From the IMG/VR virus record IMGVR_UViG_3300049144_000095, positions 187,160-251,159 of that record: a stretch of 64,000 bases of DNA, one strand, 5' to 3'. The notes below the pieces were generated by a model. The model searched no databases and was not told the origin of the DNA. It worked only from the letters and a program-made list of their open reading frames with translations. Shown here piece after piece: positions 5,843-39,057 of the stretch. The DNA comes from a virus. Taxonomy: Duplodnaviria; Caudoviricetes. A program made the position numbers and the translations under genes. Numbering within the stretch: the first letter of the stretch is position 1; each line of letters opens with the position of its first letter.

Positions 5843-6105
5843 CCGACTTCGGCACCGAGGTCTGCCCACCTCCAGGGGGTGTGAGTGGTGTGCCGTCGAT
5901 GCCGTCCGCACGGCCTGCAACGAGACGGGGCGTGCCGCTTCGGTATGAAGCGGTGCAGGGGCAGTAGCCACTGTCCCTCGACTTCAACATGGTCGCCCCG
6001 GTGCTGGCCGCAGCCGTTGTAGTCGCAGATCCAGTAGCCGTCGCTCCCGTCGGGGCGAACCGGCCCCTCGCGGTGCCAGTGATCCGTGATCAGGGGGCTT
6101 GTCAT
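5827..6105 (-). CDS. Cys/His-rich hypothetical protein
   Basis: CxxxxC..H and CxxC..H motifs; last gene of a minus-strand run. Confidence 0.5.
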   Translation of the reverse strand: MTSPLITDHWHREGPVRPDGSDGYWICDYNGCGQHRGDHVEVEGQWLLPLHRFIPKRHAPSRCRPCGRHRRHTTHTPWRWADLGAEVGQASR

Positions 6106-34825: not shown

Positions 34826-34900
34826 TGGCGAATAGCTCAGCTCGGTCAGAGCGCGGAACTGATAATTCCGAGGTCGAAGGTTCAAGTCCTTCTTCGCCAA
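34826..34900 (+). tRNA. tRNA-Ile(GAU), CCA not encoded
   Basis: TGGCGAA/TTCGCCA acceptor; GCTC/GAGC D stem; CGGAA-CT GAT AA-TTCCG; GAAGG-TTCAAGT-CCTTC. Confidence 0.93.
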
Positions 34901-35104
34901 CTGAGCCAGGGGGGTAGCGCTGGGCACGGCGCACCTCCTGGCTCACTCTCTCTCCCCGCTGCACCTGGTACGGGCGGTGCAGCGGGGAGACGCCAAGCGA
35001 ACGGCGCAAGGAGCAGGTCGCATCGAGATGGGTGGTTCGTCGGAGCAGGTCAGGGGGTTTCGGCCCGACGGCCAAGCGGTCAACTAACCACCATCGTCCA
35101 TAGC

Positions 35105-35133
35105 TTGACGGTCGAACTGAGAGTAAATACCTT
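35105..35133 (+). promoter_or_regulatory. putative sigma70-type promoter for the Y-RNA array
   Basis: TTGACG-N17-TACCTT. Confidence 0.55.
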
Positions 35134-35169
35134 GCGGCACTACCGCAGGATCTTGTACTGTTTTTCTTA

Positions 35170-35245
35170 GCACCCGGTGTGAAGGCAACGGTTACTTCTT
35201 CTGCAAAAAGAACCCACACCGTAGCCGATTCGGTTAACCGGGGGC
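35170..35245 (+). ncRNA. Y-RNA-like gene 1 (short; scaffold plus single anticodon-like stem-loop, GCA)
   Basis: CCCGGT/ACCGGG closing stem; shared GGTGTG..ACGGTTACTTC..CACCGT..CGATTCGGTTAACC; TTCTT-CTGCAAA-AAGAA hairpin. Confidence 0.75.
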
Positions 35246-35263
35246 GTCAACTTCACAGTGGTT

Positions 35264-35408
35264 CTGGAGTCGTTCGGTGTGATAGTGACGGTTACTTCAC
35301 CTCTGGAGTGAGTAGACCGGTTCAACTCCGGCGACGGCGAAAGCCCGGTAGTGTAACGGCAGCACGCTAACGTACACCGTTGCGATTTGGTTAACCGGAC
35401 GACCCCAG
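35264..35408 (+). ncRNA. Y-RNA-like gene 2 (YrlA-type; circularly permuted tRNA-Gln-like module)
   Basis: CTGGAGTCGTTCGGT/ACCGGACGACCCCAG stem; TTCAC-CTCTGGA-GTGAG, T arm CCGG-TTCAACT-CCGG, GAAA-capped acceptor remnant, D arm GTGT-AACGGCA-GCAC. Confidence 0.82.
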
Positions 35409-35432
35409 AGTCACTGTGATGTGCGCAGACAA

Positions 35433-35576
35433 ACCGGCTGGTGTGTAAGCATCAGTTACTTCCGGTAATCTCTAGGTCGTTGGTTCAAGTCCAACCCGGA
35501 GCTTAAACACTTCGGTAGCTCAGTTGGCAGAGCAAGAGACAAATTGTCACTGGTGCGACTTGGTTAACCAGCCGGT
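35433..35576 (+). ncRNA. Y-RNA-like gene 3 (YrlA-type; circularly permuted tRNA module)
   Basis: ACCGGCTGGT/ACCAGCCGGT stem; TCTCT-AGGTC-GTTGG TTCAAGT CCAAC-CCGGAG loop CTTCGG-TA-GCTC AGTTGGCA GAGC-A-AGAGA (T arm precedes D arm). Confidence 0.88.
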
Positions 35577-35593
35577 CTGCCTGCGTACATGAG

Positions 35594-35622
35594 ATGCCCC
35601 CTCCCTGGAGGGGGCATTTTTT
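35594..35622 (+). terminator. intrinsic terminator closing the Y-RNA array
   Basis: ATGCCCCCTC-cctg-GAGGGGGCAT-TTTTT. Confidence 0.85.
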
Positions 35623-35643
35623 GTTTGACCGGAAAGGGGAGAA

Positions 35644-35859
35644 ATGAAAGCAGTCGGTGTCAGATATACGAACATCGACGCCCCCGAGAGTAACGGGTGC
35701 GACGGGTGCCTTGCCCTGAAGAACGTAAGGGCCTTCTGTGCGGATCACCGAGAAGGTCGCCCCTGTCTCTGGTGCCTCGACAGGGGCTACGCCGTGAGGG
35801 AAAACCGCTGGTTGCCGTGCGGATGCCGAACGGATCGAGTCAACGAAGAGGAGAACTGA
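35644..35859 (+). CDS. small Cys-rich (Zn-binding) protein upstream of Ro60
   Basis: GGAAAGGGGAG RBS; CDGC, CADH, CLWC, CGC; stop 3 nt before the TROVE start. Confidence 0.7.
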   Translation: MKAVGVRYTNIDAPESNGCDGCLALKNVRAFCADHREGRPCLWCLDRGYAVRENRWLPCGCRTDRVNEEEN

Positions 35860-35862
35860 ACC

Positions 35863-37473
35863 ATGACCCGTTTCAACATCAAGACAACCCAGCCGAAGGC
35901 GAAGGCTCCGGCCATCGGCACCTCTGTGAACCACGAGGGCGGCACCGGCTACACGCTCCCGGAGAAGGGTGAGCTGTTCAATCTCGCCACCGTCAACTTC
36001 GTCGGACAGGACACCTTCTATGAGAAGGGCGTCGACCGGGACGCACGCTACAACGGGCTCGTTGAGAGCGTCGCAGTCGACGACTGGTCCTGGTTGCGTG
36101 GCATGCTGACATGGCTGCGCTCCGACGCCAACATCCGCACCGCCTCCCTCACAGGCGCCGCGCACGCCGTGCACCGCCGCCTGGCAGCCGGTCAGTACGA
36201 CGGCAACGCCGAACTGGTCGACTCCGTGATCCAGCGCGCCGATGAGGTCGGCGAGTTCGCCGTGTACTGGCTCGCCACCTTCAAGGGCACCATGCCGAAG
36301 CCGGTCAAGAAGGGCCTGGCGATGGCGATGGTGCGCCTCTACACGGCCCGCAACGCCCTGAAGTGGGACTCGGGGGCGCGCGGCATGCGTTTCGCCGACG
36401 TCATCAACCTCGTCCACCCGAAGCCGCGCGACTCCGAGCAGGAGGCGCTGTGGAAGTACCTGCTCGACGAGCGCGGGCACAAGGACGGCAGCATCGACAC
36501 GGTGCCGATGATCGCCGCTCGCAAGCGCTGGTACGACGAGTTCTCCGACGAGCAGAAGCTGGCCTCGCTCCGCGACGGCTCGGCGTTCCGCGACTGCGGT
36601 CTCACGTGGGAGAACGCGTCGTCCGAGCTGAAGGCCCGAGTCGGCGAGAAGGTGCTATGGGAAGCGATGGCCTCGCACCTGCCCTACATGGCCGCCATAC
36701 GCAACCTGCGAAACATGGACCAGGCGGGCATCTCGTACACCACGGCCAGCAAGCTGGCGGCGCGCATCGCAGACCCGGCGGAGGTGGCCAAGTTCCGGCA
36801 GCTTCCGTACCGGTTCCTGTCCGCCTACCTGGCGGCTCCGAGCGACCGCTGGAAGGGTGCCCTGGAGGAGGCCATCAACCTGTCGCTGAAGTCCGTGCCG
36901 GAACTGCCGGGGCGCACGCTGGTCCTGGTCGACACTTCGGCGTCGATGAACCAGATGGGTTTCTCGGAGAAGTCCAAGGTGACCCCGGCCGTGGCGGCGG
37001 CCATCTTCGGCACGATCCTGGCCCAGCGCAACCCGGGCCGGGTCGAGCTGTACGGCTTCGCCAGCGGCGTGTTCAAGCACGACGTCAAGCCGGGTCAGGG
37101 GGTCCTCGCCGCCACGCAGGGCTTCATTCGCCGGATCGGCGATGTCGGGCACGGTACCGAGATGACGGCGTCCATCCGCCAGACGTTCACCGGGCACGAC
37201 CGCGTGTTCGTGATCAGCGACATGCAGTGCTTCGCGGACGACTCCGGGACGATGCTGACCAACGGTGAGACATACGGCGCGGTTGCGCAGCCGGTTCCGG
37301 TGCCGAACGGTACGAAGGTGTACGGCGTCAACATCGGCGGCAACACCAAGACCGCGATCGACTCGCGGATCAAGAACCGGTTCGAGTTCGCCGGACTGAC
37401 CGACCAGGTCTTCCAGCAGATCCTCGCACTGGAGGCCGGGTTCGCCGAGAAGTGGCCGTGGATGACTGCCTGA
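35863..37473 (+). CDS. rsr: Ro60/TROVE RNA-binding protein with C-terminal vWA domain
   Basis: NHEGG..Y....KGELF..FVGQDTFYE; WLRSDANIRTAS; RFADVINLVHPKP; LPYMAAIRNLRN; QLPYRFLSAY; LVLVDTSASM. Confidence 0.93.
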   Translation: MTRFNIKTTQPKAKAPAIGTSVNHEGGTGYTLPEKGELFNLATVNFVGQDTFYEKGVDRDARYNGLVESVAVDDWSWLRGMLTWLRSDANIRTASLTGAAHAVHRRLAAGQYDGNAELVDSVIQRADEVGEFAVYWLATFKGTMPKPVKKGLAMAMVRLYTARNALKWDSGARGMRFADVINLVHPKPRDSEQEALWKYLLDERGHKDGSIDTVPMIAARKRWYDEFSDEQKLASLRDGSAFRDCGLTWENASSELKARVGEKVLWEAMASHLPYMAAIRNLRNMDQAGISYTTASKLAARIADPAEVAKFRQLPYRFLSAYLAAPSDRWKGALEEAINLSLKSVPELPGRTLVLVDTSASMNQMGFSEKSKVTPAVAAAIFGTILAQRNPGRVELYGFASGVFKHDVKPGQGVLAATQGFIRRIGDVGHGTEMTASIRQTFTGHDRVFVISDMQCFADDSGTMLTNGETYGAVAQPVPVPNGTKVYGVNIGGNTKTAIDSRIKNRFEFAGLTDQVFQQILALEAGFAEKWPWMTA

Positions 37474-37484
37474 GCGGCGCACAG

Positions 37485-37518
37485 CGACGGGCCCCTTCGG
37501 AAACGAGGGGGCCCGTCG
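37485..37518 (+). terminator. GC hairpin after the Ro60 gene
   Basis: CGACGGGCCCCTT...GGGGGCCCGTCG. Confidence 0.65.
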
Positions 37519-37540
37519 TGGTTCACTCTCACCGAAGGAC

Positions 37541-37570
37541 TGGCCTAGGCCACGAAGTTTCCCATAGAAT
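37541..37570 (+). promoter_or_regulatory. promoter with GGCCTAGGCC (37542-37551)
   Basis: TGGCCT-N18-TAGAAT. Confidence 0.6.
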
Positions 37571-37598
37571 GGAATGGTTGACGGAAAGGAAAAGAAAC

Positions 37599-38621
37599 GT
37601 GACCACCAAGATCTGGATCAACCGAGCCCGCACGTACAAGACACACCTCATCGACATGCTGCGCAGCAATCCCGACGGGCGACCGGTGGAGATCTACACC
37701 ACGCACGTGGAAGCCAGCCCGGCGACCGCCCGTGCGGACCACTACAGCGCCGAACCCTCCCGGGAGACCCCGGACGAGGAGTACGCCGCCTGGGCCCTGG
37801 AGTTCGCGGAGCGCAATGGCATCGACTTCCTGCTCCCTTCGGACCGGGTCGTCGCACTGTCTCACTACCAGCACGAGTTCGCCCGGATCGGCACCACGCT
37901 GCTCTCCGCGCCGAACCCCGACCGCGCGGCCGTCACCAACTCCAAGACGGAAACGTACCGCCTGGCGGCAGAAGCGGGCCTGCGGGTGCCCCTACATGTC
38001 CAGGTGTCCACTGCGGCCGACTTCCGTGACGCGGTTCGCAAGATCGAATGGCAGGGCTTCCCGGCCTGCGTGAAGCCCGACACGGGGTGGGCGGCCGACG
38101 GTTTCTGGCTCATCAATCACCGGCGTCCCAGTGCCTCCGAACTCTTCACTCGCGGGCAGCGTACGGTTCGCGCAGAGGACTACGCCCGAGCCCTCCACGA
38201 CCTGGAAGACGGCGGAGAGAAGATTCCGCCACTCATCGTGATGCCCTACATGGACGACCCGGAGACGAGCATCGACTGCCTCACCGCTTCGGACGGCCAG
38301 GTCGTCACCACGATCGCCCGCAGCAAGGGTCGTTACGCGCGCACCTTCAGCGACGATCCGGCAGTGCATCACATCGCCCGCACGATGGCGCAGGCGCTCG
38401 GCATCACCTACCTGTCCAATGTGCAGACCAGGATGCTGGACGGTGAACCCATGCTGCTGGAGGTCAACCCCCGCGCCTCGGACGGTCTGCCCCACTGCAT
38501 GGCCACCGGCATCAACCTCGCCTGGGAAGCGGTCCGCCTCGCCTCCGGAGAGCCCGTGCGTGCACTGCGGCCCGACACCAGCAAGCTGCTCTACGTCGTG
38601 GACAGCATCATCGAGCTGTAG
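37599..38621 (+). CDS. ATP-grasp protein, Ter-associated type
   Basis: KIWINRARTY..LIDMLRSNPDG; YAAWALEFAERNGIDFLLP; CVKP; LIVMPYMDDPETSIDCL; LLEVNPR. Confidence 0.8.
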   Translation: MTTKIWINRARTYKTHLIDMLRSNPDGRPVEIYTTHVEASPATARADHYSAEPSRETPDEEYAAWALEFAERNGIDFLLPSDRVVALSHYQHEFARIGTTLLSAPNPDRAAVTNSKTETYRLAAEAGLRVPLHVQVSTAADFRDAVRKIEWQGFPACVKPDTGWAADGFWLINHRRPSASELFTRGQRTVRAEDYARALHDLEDGGEKIPPLIVMPYMDDPETSIDCLTASDGQVVTTIARSKGRYARTFSDDPAVHHIARTMAQALGITYLSNVQTRMLDGEPMLLEVNPRASDGLPHCMATGINLAWEAVRLASGEPVRALRPDTSKLLYVVDSIIEL

Positions 38622-38673
38622 GGATGGACCTGGGGTCCTCCGTGCAGCAGGCACCTTGAAGGAGGGGCCTGGA

Positions 38674-39057
38674 ATGGGTCAGGGAAGCACGGTCGAAGTC
38701 GGCGGAGAGGTTCTTTCCGTCGGTGACACGGTGATCGTGGAGAAAGGGCGGGACCGGGTGGAATGTCCGATCACCTCGATCGGCAATAAATACATCCACG
38801 TGAAGATGCACAACAGGGCGCTGAGGTTCCGTATCGGCGACCAGTCGGTTGCCGACAACCGGCGCGGAGTGCCCGCCCGCTTCTACACGCACACCGAAGT
38901 GGCTCGGGCGAAGAAACGGAGGGATCTGATCCTTCGCCTTCATGCTCTCGGATTCAAGCCGGTGGAGGGTTCTCTCAGCTCCGCGTCTCAGTACGATGAT
39001 GAGACGTTGGAGCGGGTTATCGCCGTCTTGTCCGAAAGCGTCAACTCCGGGAAATAA
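38674..39057 (+). CDS. hypothetical protein (SH3-like beta-rich N-terminus)
   Basis: GGAGGGG RBS; LSVGDTVIV...ITSIGNKYIHV. Confidence 0.6.
   Translation: MGQGSTVEVGGEVLSVGDTVIVEKGRDRVECPITSIGNKYIHVKMHNRALRFRIGDQSVADNRRGVPARFYTHTEVARAKKRRDLILRLHALGFKPVEGSLSSASQYDDETLERVIAVLSESVNSGK

Follow-up and report, generated by a model that had tools for sequence, protein, structure and literature searches.

The closest described relatives of the locus analysed here are Y RNA genes that accompany genes for Ro60 (Rsr). In M. smegmatis, a single precursor encoded upstream of rsr gives rise to both YrlA and YrlB, the latter carrying just a T arm (PMC4201824). A further bacterial representative is YrlA of Salmonella Typhimurium (RF02553; structure 6CU1, bioRxiv 10.1101/312249). 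Among phages, Thermus phage phiLo produces two such RNAs, Yrl1 and Yrl2, that are bound by the phage Ro60 (PMC12135203), and in Listeria phage CKA15 three highly transcribed regions at most 2 kb upstream of a Ro-like gene have been proposed to be Y RNAs (PMC12282133). The vertebrate Y RNAs Y1, Y3, Y4 and Y5 form another paralogous set.

The window, i.e., the whole 64,000-nt stretch of DNA analysed, belongs to the 251-kb genome of a large Streptomyces phage, most closely related to the ~186-kb Streptomyces phages Satis, Kradal and Quantum; the “phage-plasmid” label given to it in the first-pass annotation is unproven. Upstream of a TROVE/vWA (Ro60) gene and on the same (+) strand lie three stem-closed RNAs (Table 1), a region that is very probably a three-gene YrlA/YrlB-type Y RNA array serving the phage's own Ro60. 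Its sequence anatomy, the homology of its scaffold, the covariation of its stems and its linkage to Ro60 across many loci are seen directly. Between the end of the array and the start of Ro60 lie 238 bp, well inside the 4 kb from a Ro60 orthologue, on the same strand, that Chen et al. 2014 set as a criterion for YrlA. The Ro60 gene is intact and encodes the arrangement by which Ro60/Rsr proteins are recognized, a TROVE HEAT-repeat ring and, behind it, a vWA domain that contains a MIDAS motif: Pfam matches TROVE at E 2.4e-15 and, weakly, VWA_2 at E 1.4e-3, and the vWA domain carries the DxSxS motif (LVLVDTSAS). Its best solved relative is the Ro60 of Thermus phage phiLo (9KOP, 9L5Y; E 6.6e-22 over residues 18-455), and it shares 71% identity with gp136 of Satis, annotated as “Ro-like RNA binding protein”.

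Table 1. Features of the Y RNA array and its surroundings (window positions)
Feature	Position	Strand	Basis and remarks
tRNA-Ile	34826-34901		ARAGORN and Rfam tRNA; 270 bp upstream of array
Promoter-like element TTGCGG-N18-TACTGT	35132-35161	+	Alignment with related phages; putative function
Y RNA unit 1	35170-35245	+	Scaffold plus single hairpin; fold and scaffold repeats
Unit 1 hairpin	35196-35212		5-bp stem, 7-nt loop CUGCAAA
Y RNA unit 2 with long outer helix	35250-35422 (core 35264-35408)	+	Inverted repeat, orthologue consensus fold
Unit 2 outer inverted repeat	35250-35278 with 35394-35422		29 nt, 83% complementary
Unit 2 anticodon-arm-like hairpin	35296-35312		Loop CUCUGGA
Unit 2 T arm	35317-35331		Clear
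Unit 2 GAAA-capped 3-bp stem	35336-35345		Clear
Unit 2 D-like arm	35351-35365		Weaker
Y RNA unit 3 with outer helix	35419-35590 (core 35433-35576)	+	Rfam YrlA match, inverted repeat, orthologue fold
Unit 3 outer inverted repeat	35419-35442 with 35567-35590		24 nt, 88% complementary
Unit 3 tRNA-like module	35469-35538		CUCU/AGAG stem, AGGUC variable loop, then the three elements below
Unit 3 T arm	35479-35495
Unit 3 acceptor-like stem	35496-35515		Closed, 6 bp; followed by UA
Unit 3 D arm	35518-35533
5′ scaffold arms (units 1, 2, 3)	35175-35198, 35275-35298, 35439-35462		24 nt; direct-repeat search
3′ scaffold arms (units 1, 2, 3)	35218-35244, 35375-35401, 35548-35574		27 nt; direct-repeat search
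Intrinsic terminator closing array	35591-35625	+	Scan (35591-35620): 13-bp stem (7 G-C pairs), 4-nt loop, T run
71-codon Cys-rich ORF	35644-35859	+	Between array and Ro60; membership in system uncertain
Ro60 (Rsr) homologue, 536 aa	35863-37473	+	TROVE ring and vWA domain

The three consecutive RNAs with terminal stems and common arms described in the first-pass annotation are recovered as repeats at the same places, the 5′ arms being 79-100% and the 3′ arms 63-100% identical, and RNAfold closes each unit by its own terminal stem, with z-scores of -1.9, -1.9 and -3.2 for units 1, 2 and 3, respectively. The first two of these values are modest and the opposite strand folds to a similar degree, so that strand assignment rests on the T/D motifs, the terminator and gene orientation. 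Pairing between arms is unit-specific: in the window, cognate arms pair at -15.3, -27.8 and -29.8 kcal/mol, versus -9.0 to -14.0 kcal/mol for non-cognate pairs, and over 43 units the means are -19.1 and -12.2, respectively. When a profile built from 55 5′ arms of other loci was run against the 251-kb genome, its top three matches were exactly these three sites, including unit 1 at E 1.3e-5 and unit 2 at E 0.037. Each unit is marked by G(R)UG(Y)G...UACUUC together with a unit-specific closing stem. All three units contain the conserved YUAY in the form UUAC, and their 5′ motif comes close to the published GNCGAA(N)G without matching it exactly, reading GGUGUGA(A/U/G) in the window (GGUGUGAAGG) and GGUGCGAAGG in Satis. 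An origin of the 5′ scaffold from a tRNA D arm was rejected because the possible stem would leave a 1-nt loop.

On this one scaffold sit three different inserts, as had been proposed. Unit 1 bears a single hairpin, contains neither T nor D arm, and is YrlB-like; its orthologues are found in Satis and in the related phage loci L003 and L004. Unit 2 carries a hairpin followed by a T arm, a mini-stem and a D-like arm. Unit 3 contains the YrlA-type series of T arm, acceptor-like stem and D arm, that is, the permuted tRNA-like domain with T and D stem-loops around a closed acceptor-like stem by which Chen et al. define the class. The suspected outer stems of units 2 and 3 were both recovered as inverted repeats. 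Since the 3′ arms of divergent units misalign (MAFFT and RNAalifold applied to 17 divergent short units recovered the inner stem alone), we used orthologue alignments and the arm-pairing test instead. The covariation proposed as a check was found by this route, in samples of 5-6 sequences from two or three clades, with orthologous arrays of the Streptomyces phages Satis, Frankenweenie and JustBecause showing the changes. The unit 2 consensus fold (6 orthologues) has 52 pairs, with compensatory change in 12, and the unit 3 fold (5 orthologues) has 53, with compensatory change in 20; either score was reached by 0/500 shuffles, and the signal of both units vanishes when partners are slid. In unit 3 the T and acceptor stems show compensatory changes, and the D arm is invariant. 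Together, scaffold homology, covarying stems and linkage across loci support as probable the first-pass view that these are Y-RNA-type genes whose partner is the neighbouring Ro60 gene.

Searches with existing models capture this array in part. At gathering thresholds, tRNA-Ile is the sole Rfam match, with none for units 1-3. The expected relationship to YrlA is seen below threshold in unit 3, which aligns to RF02553 at 35449-35559 on the + strand (E 8.1e-7) with 39.1 bits against a gathering score of 69; units 1 and 2 match no Rfam family. Phage and host relatives also reach just 32-47 bits, which argues that the YrlA model is weak for the actinobacterial branch, and a sub-threshold YrlA match occurs in one unit per array in 14 related phage and host loci. 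The Rfam Y_RNA model (RF00019) gave no match to the window even at E 10.

The first-pass annotation had placed the array in a Ro60 operon, behind a TTGACG-N17-TACCTT promoter and directly before the TROVE/vWA gene. That promoter is not conserved in related phages and was dropped. The conserved element is instead the one listed in Table 1, whose hexamers stand in invariant columns of an alignment in which L003, L004, Satis, Frankenweenie and JustBecause read TTGCGA-N18-TA(A/G)T(G/C)T; a strict sigma-70 scan called no promoter, at this element or elsewhere. The start predicted from it falls a few bases ahead of unit 1. The U-rich terminator was recovered by the scan as a strong intrinsic terminator, and Satis, Frankenweenie and the host loci have a corresponding hairpin behind their arrays. 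Because this terminator closes the array, we regard the array as a separate transcription unit and not as a clear member of a Ro60 operon. Nor does it immediately precede the Ro60 gene, since the 71-codon ORF sits between them. This ORF has no Pfam match and no homologue in any related locus examined, and is therefore not claimed as part of the system; it is absent from Satis, whose Ro60 begins right behind the terminator.

Among the known systems, M. smegmatis YrlA/YrlB resembles the array in several respects. Both are actinobacterial and lie upstream of rsr on its strand, with a single precursor established there and probable here; both pair an RNA with a full tRNA-like domain with one bearing a partial tRNA-like part, and both contain YUAY, next to a 5′ Ro-binding motif that the window units approximate. 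The window differs in having three units instead of two, in being phage-borne, in a unit 1 that lacks even the T arm and in the order of unit types, and its RNAs are predicted from sequence. Unit 3 aligns over the full length of the Salmonella YrlA model with the same arm order: an anticodon-like stem between the two scaffold strands, then the variable loop and T arm, and after these the closed acceptor-like stem, UA and D arm. However, Salmonella yrlA lies 3′ of rsr within the rtcBA repair operon, and the solved RNA lacks the intact anticodon-arm-like hairpin that unit 2 keeps. Like the window, phiLo has a phage Ro60 with Y-like RNAs directly upstream, yet these number two and are recognized by their CGAA motif and stem-bulge-stem shape; the window scaffold motif was not seen upstream of the phiLo Ro60 gene. 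CKA15 resembles the window in having three abundant transcripts on the strand of its Ro60-like gene, but it is a Firmicute phage, and the likeness is one of description to RNAs whose Y RNA identity is itself proposed. Vertebrate Y RNAs share the principle of a common Ro60-binding stem with a differing distal module, although they have no tRNA-like module. In Satis, the unit 1 orthologue has a 5′ arm that agrees with the mouse Y1 5′ end (sequence from PMC4597359) at 17/20 positions, a likeness reached by 0/2000 shuffles; for the window units the corresponding counts are 32-247/2000, which is not significant, and we keep the Y1 similarity as a mere lead because it is significant only for Satis unit 1.

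Such rows of units are widespread, and about 100 units were collected in all. Arrays of 2-5 units with the same scaffold occur in 15/15 actinophage loci examined and in 6/7 Streptomyces/Kitasatospora chromosomal rsr loci, the seventh having a single unit; three-unit arrays are present in chromosomes of both genera. In a pattern scan of IMG/VR, many single matches are expected by chance (a rough estimate from pattern length and collection size), and counting was therefore limited to 40 further loci that also encode a Ro60 relative, of which 24 contain at least three arms. The arrays adjoin Ro60 on the Ro60 strand in the 15/15 phage loci, 6/7 host loci and these 40 loci. Two-member sets are also already published for M. 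smegmatis (PMC4201824) and phiLo (PMC12135203). The graded three-member set, which the first-pass annotation did not recognize as described while naming in advance a homologue survey as the measure of novelty, therefore loses its claim to be unusual: multi-unit arrays are routine, the norm in related phages, and triplets also occur in host chromosomes. Judged from its sequence, the window array is a further case of a known arrangement, rows of Y RNAs beside Ro60, and reveals no new kind of system.

Could the units instead be a decayed tRNA cluster, or a structured 5′ leader or attenuator of the Ro60 mRNA, neither yielding stable small RNAs? A true tRNA-Ile lies upstream, T-arm and D-arm sequences occur in the units, and in Satis and host loci the terminator hairpin directly ahead of the Ro60 start would suit attenuation. 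However, none of the units is called as a tRNA by ARAGORN or the Rfam tRNA model, and their arm order is permuted as in YrlA (T, closed acceptor stem, D). Even between phages with Ro60 proteins of just 35-40% identity, the scaffold arms outside the tRNA-like parts stay conserved and compensatory changes maintain the stems, features that decay would not preserve, and a leader would have no need of three independently closed modules. We consider this explanation very improbable.

Somewhat less remote, though still unlikely, is that the RNAs act chiefly as tRNA-part decoys or sensors for host tRNA-cleaving defence nucleases, with Ro60 as their carrier, rather than as classical tethers. The hairpins behind UACUUC would then mimic anticodon arms (CU-GCA-AA, CU-CUG-GA) and the T/D elbows tRNA bodies. 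In line with this, the motif's UUC is the opening of a hairpin (3-6-bp stem, 7-nt loop) in 13/43 non-duplicate units (18/50 listed units if the near-duplicate loci L003 and L004 are both counted), at least 8 different loops match the anticodon-loop pattern (Y)U-NNN-R-A, and several units continue after the hairpin with a canonical 5-nt AGGUC variable loop and a T arm; annotation pipelines label such units tRNA-Cys, tRNA-Arg or tRNA-Pro. JustBecause has an RNA ligase gene between array and Ro60, and in Salmonella damaged tRNAs regulate rsr-yrlBA jointly with RNA repair (PMC7790460), whereas a Pfam search found no RNA-repair gene beside the window array. Moreover, in the model of Chen et al. the same hairpin forms a variable arm (PMC4201824), an origin from dimeric tRNA could have left the loops as relics (bioRxiv 10.1101/312249), and loop sequences drift among close orthologues.

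For the favoured Y RNA array, we infer transcription, processing, Ro60 binding and effectors; 24 sequencing runs contain this DNA, and all of them are recorded as something other than RNA. A single precursor would probably run from the promoter-like element to the terminator. Cleavage at the outer helices of units 2 and 3, which are long and abut each other, would then release three RNAs. Closing stem, 5′ G-G-U-G-Y-G-A motif, inner stem and UACUUC loop may form a common handle that docks on the Ro60 ring, as in Deinococcus, Salmonella, M. smegmatis and Thermus phage phiLo. The putative effector ends differ: a lone hairpin in unit 1, an anticodon-arm-like hairpin plus a tRNA elbow with minimal acceptor stem in unit 2, and a full YrlA-type tRNA-like domain with closed acceptor stem in unit 3. 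This variable end may recruit, or imitate the substrate of, other RNA enzymes, e.g., PNPase or tRNA-recognizing enzymes, so that one Ro60 could form several different particles during infection. A speculative extension, to which we give little credence, is that the array deliberately displays three tRNA sub-structures on one Ro60 handle: the anticodon arm alone, the anticodon arm with elbow, and the elbow with acceptor stem. If so, the phage could tether Ro60 to, or decoy, three classes of tRNA-recognizing enzymes, such as anticodon nucleases that the host employs for defence.

The main value of the finding lies in annotation and in the choice of an experimental system. The array RNAs are missed at the Rfam threshold and escape current annotation: among the GenBank records inspected, that of Satis leaves the array unannotated, and others label parts of it as odd tRNAs (tRNA-Pro in Frankenweenie, tRNA-Cys in JustBecause, tRNA-Arg in GiJojo and VanLee) or as the small hypothetical proteins gp93 and gp94 (Rabbitrun). 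The motif and closing stem that mark each unit offer a simple way to find them. The cultured phages Satis, Kradal and Quantum carry the same triplet and, grown on S. lividans or S. griseofuscus, are a candidate system for the roles of Y RNA modules during infection.

The window forms the right-hand end (64 kb) of an IMG/VR virus record of 251,159 bp (65% G+C), whose genome encodes seven tRNAs, and carries three Y RNA-like units upstream of a Ro60 gene. The three units proposed in the first-pass annotation are borne out: a repeat search recovers a 24-nt 5' arm and a 27-nt 3' arm three times each and encloses units 2 and 3 each in a long inverted repeat, every unit has its own closing stem in its predicted fold, and the array closes with a G+C-rich hairpin (13-bp stem) plus a T run. 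Different promoter hexamers had been named; the element kept in five related phages is TTGCGG-N18-TACTGT, from which transcription would start at the foot of unit 1. In each phage the spacer of this promoter-like element holds a short dyad, which could be an operator. Nor does the array lie directly before Ro60, as had been stated, for a 71-codon ORF intervenes, its stop 3 nt ahead of the Ro60 start codon. Its product is Cys-rich (CDGC, CLWC, CGC), falls into no Pfam family and lacks homologues both in related loci and in the rest of the genome. The Ro60 protein combines a TROVE domain with a vWA domain that bears the MIDAS motif DTSAS; among proteins of solved structure, Ro60 from Thermus phage phiLo is its best relative. 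Among the genes 3' of Ro60, one encodes a Ter-operon-type ATP-grasp protein (PF15632, E 5e-31) and another a phage ProQ C-terminal-like domain (PF24203, E 6e-14), which may make its product another RNA-binding protein.

Features of the Ro60 locus and of related phage loci (coordinates without a prefix refer to the window)
Feature	Coordinates	Remarks
tRNA-Ile(GAU)	34826-34901	
Strong G+C-rich hairpin	about 34950-34991	follows tRNA-Ile; no T run
Promoter-like element	35132-35161	
Promoter spacer, 18 nt	35138-35155	dyad GCGG-CACTA-CCGC
Promoter spacer, Satis	L001 about 5995-6012	dyad GATCCC-CTCGC-GGGATC
5' arms	starts 35175, 35275, 35439	
3' arms	starts 35218, 35375, 35548	
Unit 1 (+)	35170-35245	
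Unit 1 insert	35196-35212	hairpin alone, loop CUGCAAA
Unit 2 (+)	35250-35422	core 35264-35408
Unit 2 insert hairpin	35296-35312	similar to that of unit 1, loop CUCUGGA
Unit 2 insert, further parts		T arm with loop UUCAACU; 3-bp stem with GAAA cap; D-like arm containing GG
Unit 3 (+)	35419-35590	core 35433-35576
Unit 3 insert		CUCU/AGAG stem from both strands, AGGUC variable loop, T arm, closed 6-bp acceptor-like stem, UA, D arm GCUC-AGUUGGCA-GAGC
Terminator	35591-35620	
71-codon ORF	35644-35859	
Ro60 gene (+)	35863-37473	
ATP-grasp and ProQ-like genes	37452-39057	
Satis unit 1 5' arm	L001:6030-6060	compared with mouse Y1
tRNA-Pro(tgg), Frankenweenie	L002:4500-4590	overlaps Y RNA unit
tRNA-Cys, JustBecause	L016:335-405	overlaps Y RNA unit
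tRNA-Arg(cct), GiJojo	L012:1269-1343	overlaps Y RNA unit
tRNA-Arg(tct), VanLee	L015:1204-1275	overlaps Y RNA unit
gp93 and gp94, Rabbitrun	L013:921-1278	small CDSs, overlap Y RNA units
RNA ligase gene, JustBecause	L016:729-1481	between Y RNA array and Ro60

Over the Ro60 locus, the GenBank entries closest to the window are those of the Streptomyces phages Satis, Kradal, Quantum and EhyElimayoE (~186 kb; 77% nucleotide identity), followed by the more distant Frankenweenie, JustBecause and Kela (35-37% Ro60 protein identity). No feature met in this analysis of the Ro60 locus and its relatives would mark the record as a phage-plasmid, as first proposed, in preference to a large Streptomyces phage. 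An FtsK-like gene and the tRNA-Ile upstream of the array are syntenic with Satis and Frankenweenie. Several comparisons speak for the units being functional RNAs. The three units occur in unchanged order in Satis, Frankenweenie, JustBecause and two IMG/VR contigs. The unit 3 consensus fold from five orthologues has 53 pairs, 20 of them changed on both sides; 89.7% of its cells are paired, versus 31-37% with partners slid, and 0/500 shuffles show covariation as high. For unit 2 (six orthologues), 12 of 52 pairs show compensatory change, chiefly within the long outer helix, a level again reached by 0/500 shuffles. In a set of 43 non-redundant units drawn from 13 loci, outer 5' arms pair with their own 3' arms at a mean of -19.1 kcal/mol versus -12.2 with those of other units, and for 30 units the cognate arm is one of the five best among the 43. 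The inner stem beside the UACUUC loop likewise admits several pair types (position -3: GC 31, AU 7, CG 3, GU 1). A profile of 55 5' arms from other loci, run against the 251-kb genome, returned exactly units 1-3 as its top three matches (E 1.3e-5, 0.037 and 0.047) and the next at E 8.9, which also shows that there are no additional units elsewhere in the genome. Judged from sequence comparison, the window holds a well-formed array of Y RNA genes next to a phage Ro60, rightly identified in the first-pass annotation, and comparison with homologues supports its stems well.

All three units are built on one scaffold: a closing stem that differs in sequence in each unit, a 5' motif G-G-U-G-U-G-A facing the 3' stretch GGUUAACC, and an inner stem with the loop UACUUC, whose UA is the counterpart of the conserved YUAY in YrlA (PMC4201824) and of the nucleotides at the kink of the Salmonella structure (bioRxiv 10.1101/312249). 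The insert of unit 3 follows the canonical YrlA order, and this unit's end-to-end alignment with Rfam YrlA scores 39.1 bits (E 8e-7), short of the 69 bits required for gathering; neither ARAGORN nor the Rfam tRNA model calls any unit a tRNA. In 13/43 non-duplicate units (18/50 listed units when the near-duplicate loci L003 and L004 are counted), the UUC of UACUUC begins a hairpin with a stem of 3-6 bp and a loop of 7 nt. The stem is often 5 bp and the loop anticodon-loop-shaped (window, Satis, Frankenweenie, VanLee, JustBecause, locus L007 and the chromosomal loci L018-L024), and many loops fit the pattern (Y)U-NNN-R-A. CUGCAAA recurs in five phage lineages, and host units have CUGUUAA, CUGUAAA, AUCCAGA and CUUCCAA. 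In several units AGGUC and then a T arm come after the hairpin, exactly as anticodon arm, variable loop and T arm are laid out in a tRNA. Chen et al. modelled the hairpin as a variable arm (PMC4201824); under the model of a dimeric-tRNA origin (cited in bioRxiv 10.1101/312249) it would be an anticodon arm that was retained. These features support a reading of the inserts as tRNA parts. That such parts serve as decoys is a further step which we consider quite unlikely, and which the hairpin geometry does not itself establish.

Annotated tRNAs in Frankenweenie, JustBecause, GiJojo and VanLee and small CDSs in Rabbitrun look misannotated. At E 0.001, the Rfam tRNA model matched none of the JustBecause, GiJojo and VanLee features and found most other annotated tRNAs there. 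The Satis unit 1 5' arm agrees at 17/20 positions with the 5'-terminal sequence of mouse Ro-associated Y1 RNA (GGUCCGAAGGUAGUGAGUUA; PMC4597359), a likeness equalled by 0/2000 shuffles; the window's own units resemble Y1 less, and by shuffle test their likeness is not significant.

The three-member set had been regarded as novel, yet a homologue survey, the yardstick proposed with that claim, shows that triplets of this kind are routine. By counts of the scaffold motif, three units each are present in the window, L003, L004, Satis, Frankenweenie and JustBecause, four each in L007, L009, BRock, Rabbitrun and VanLee, five in GiJojo, and two each in the host-like loci L005 and L006 and in L008, where they lie downstream of Ro60. 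Streptomyces and Kitasatospora chromosomal rsr loci share the scaffold, with three units upstream of rsr in 5/7, two in 1/7 and one in 1/7. In IMG/VR, 119 stretches match the scaffold pattern, 40 of which also encode a Ro60 relative; these 40 have one (2 loci), two (14), three (10), four (4), five (6), six (2) or seven (2) arms, counted by a regex that can miss variant units and add chance matches. Previous studies describe YrlA and YrlB, the latter with a T arm only, on one precursor upstream of rsr in M. smegmatis, and 355 YrlA-like sequences in 276 genomes (PMC4201824), two Y-like RNAs upstream of, and bound by, phiLo Ro60 (PMC12135203), and, in a Listeria phage, three abundant transcripts that lie upstream of a Ro-like gene and were proposed to be Y RNAs (PMC12282133). 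The arrangement is thus ordinary for actinobacterial and actinophage rsr loci, to which the window array adds another member.

We propose that a single precursor would run from the conserved promoter to the terminator. The outer helices of units 2 (29-nt) and 3 (24-nt) abut at 35419-35422 and look like double-strand-specific processing sites that would free the units, for which M. smegmatis offers a precedent. The scaffold handle would dock on the Ro60 ring, because GGUG(C/U)GA resembles the vertebrate GGUCCGA and bacterial GNCGAA motifs, and the variable ends may recruit different partners, published candidates being PNPase and tRNA-elbow-recognising proteins. In L005, L006 and L018-L024, the 3' arm of the array-ending hairpin contains GGAGG/GAGGGG, placed 7-10 nt upstream of the rsr start codon, so the terminator in these host-like loci may also mask the ribosome-binding site and could act as an attenuator. 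The RNA ligase gene in the JustBecause locus, none being adjacent in the window, links the Y RNA/Ro60 system to RNA repair in that lineage. The phage might plausibly gain by re-targeting host exonucleases, by keeping a check on the quality of its structured RNAs, among them its seven tRNAs, or by withstanding damage to tRNAs.
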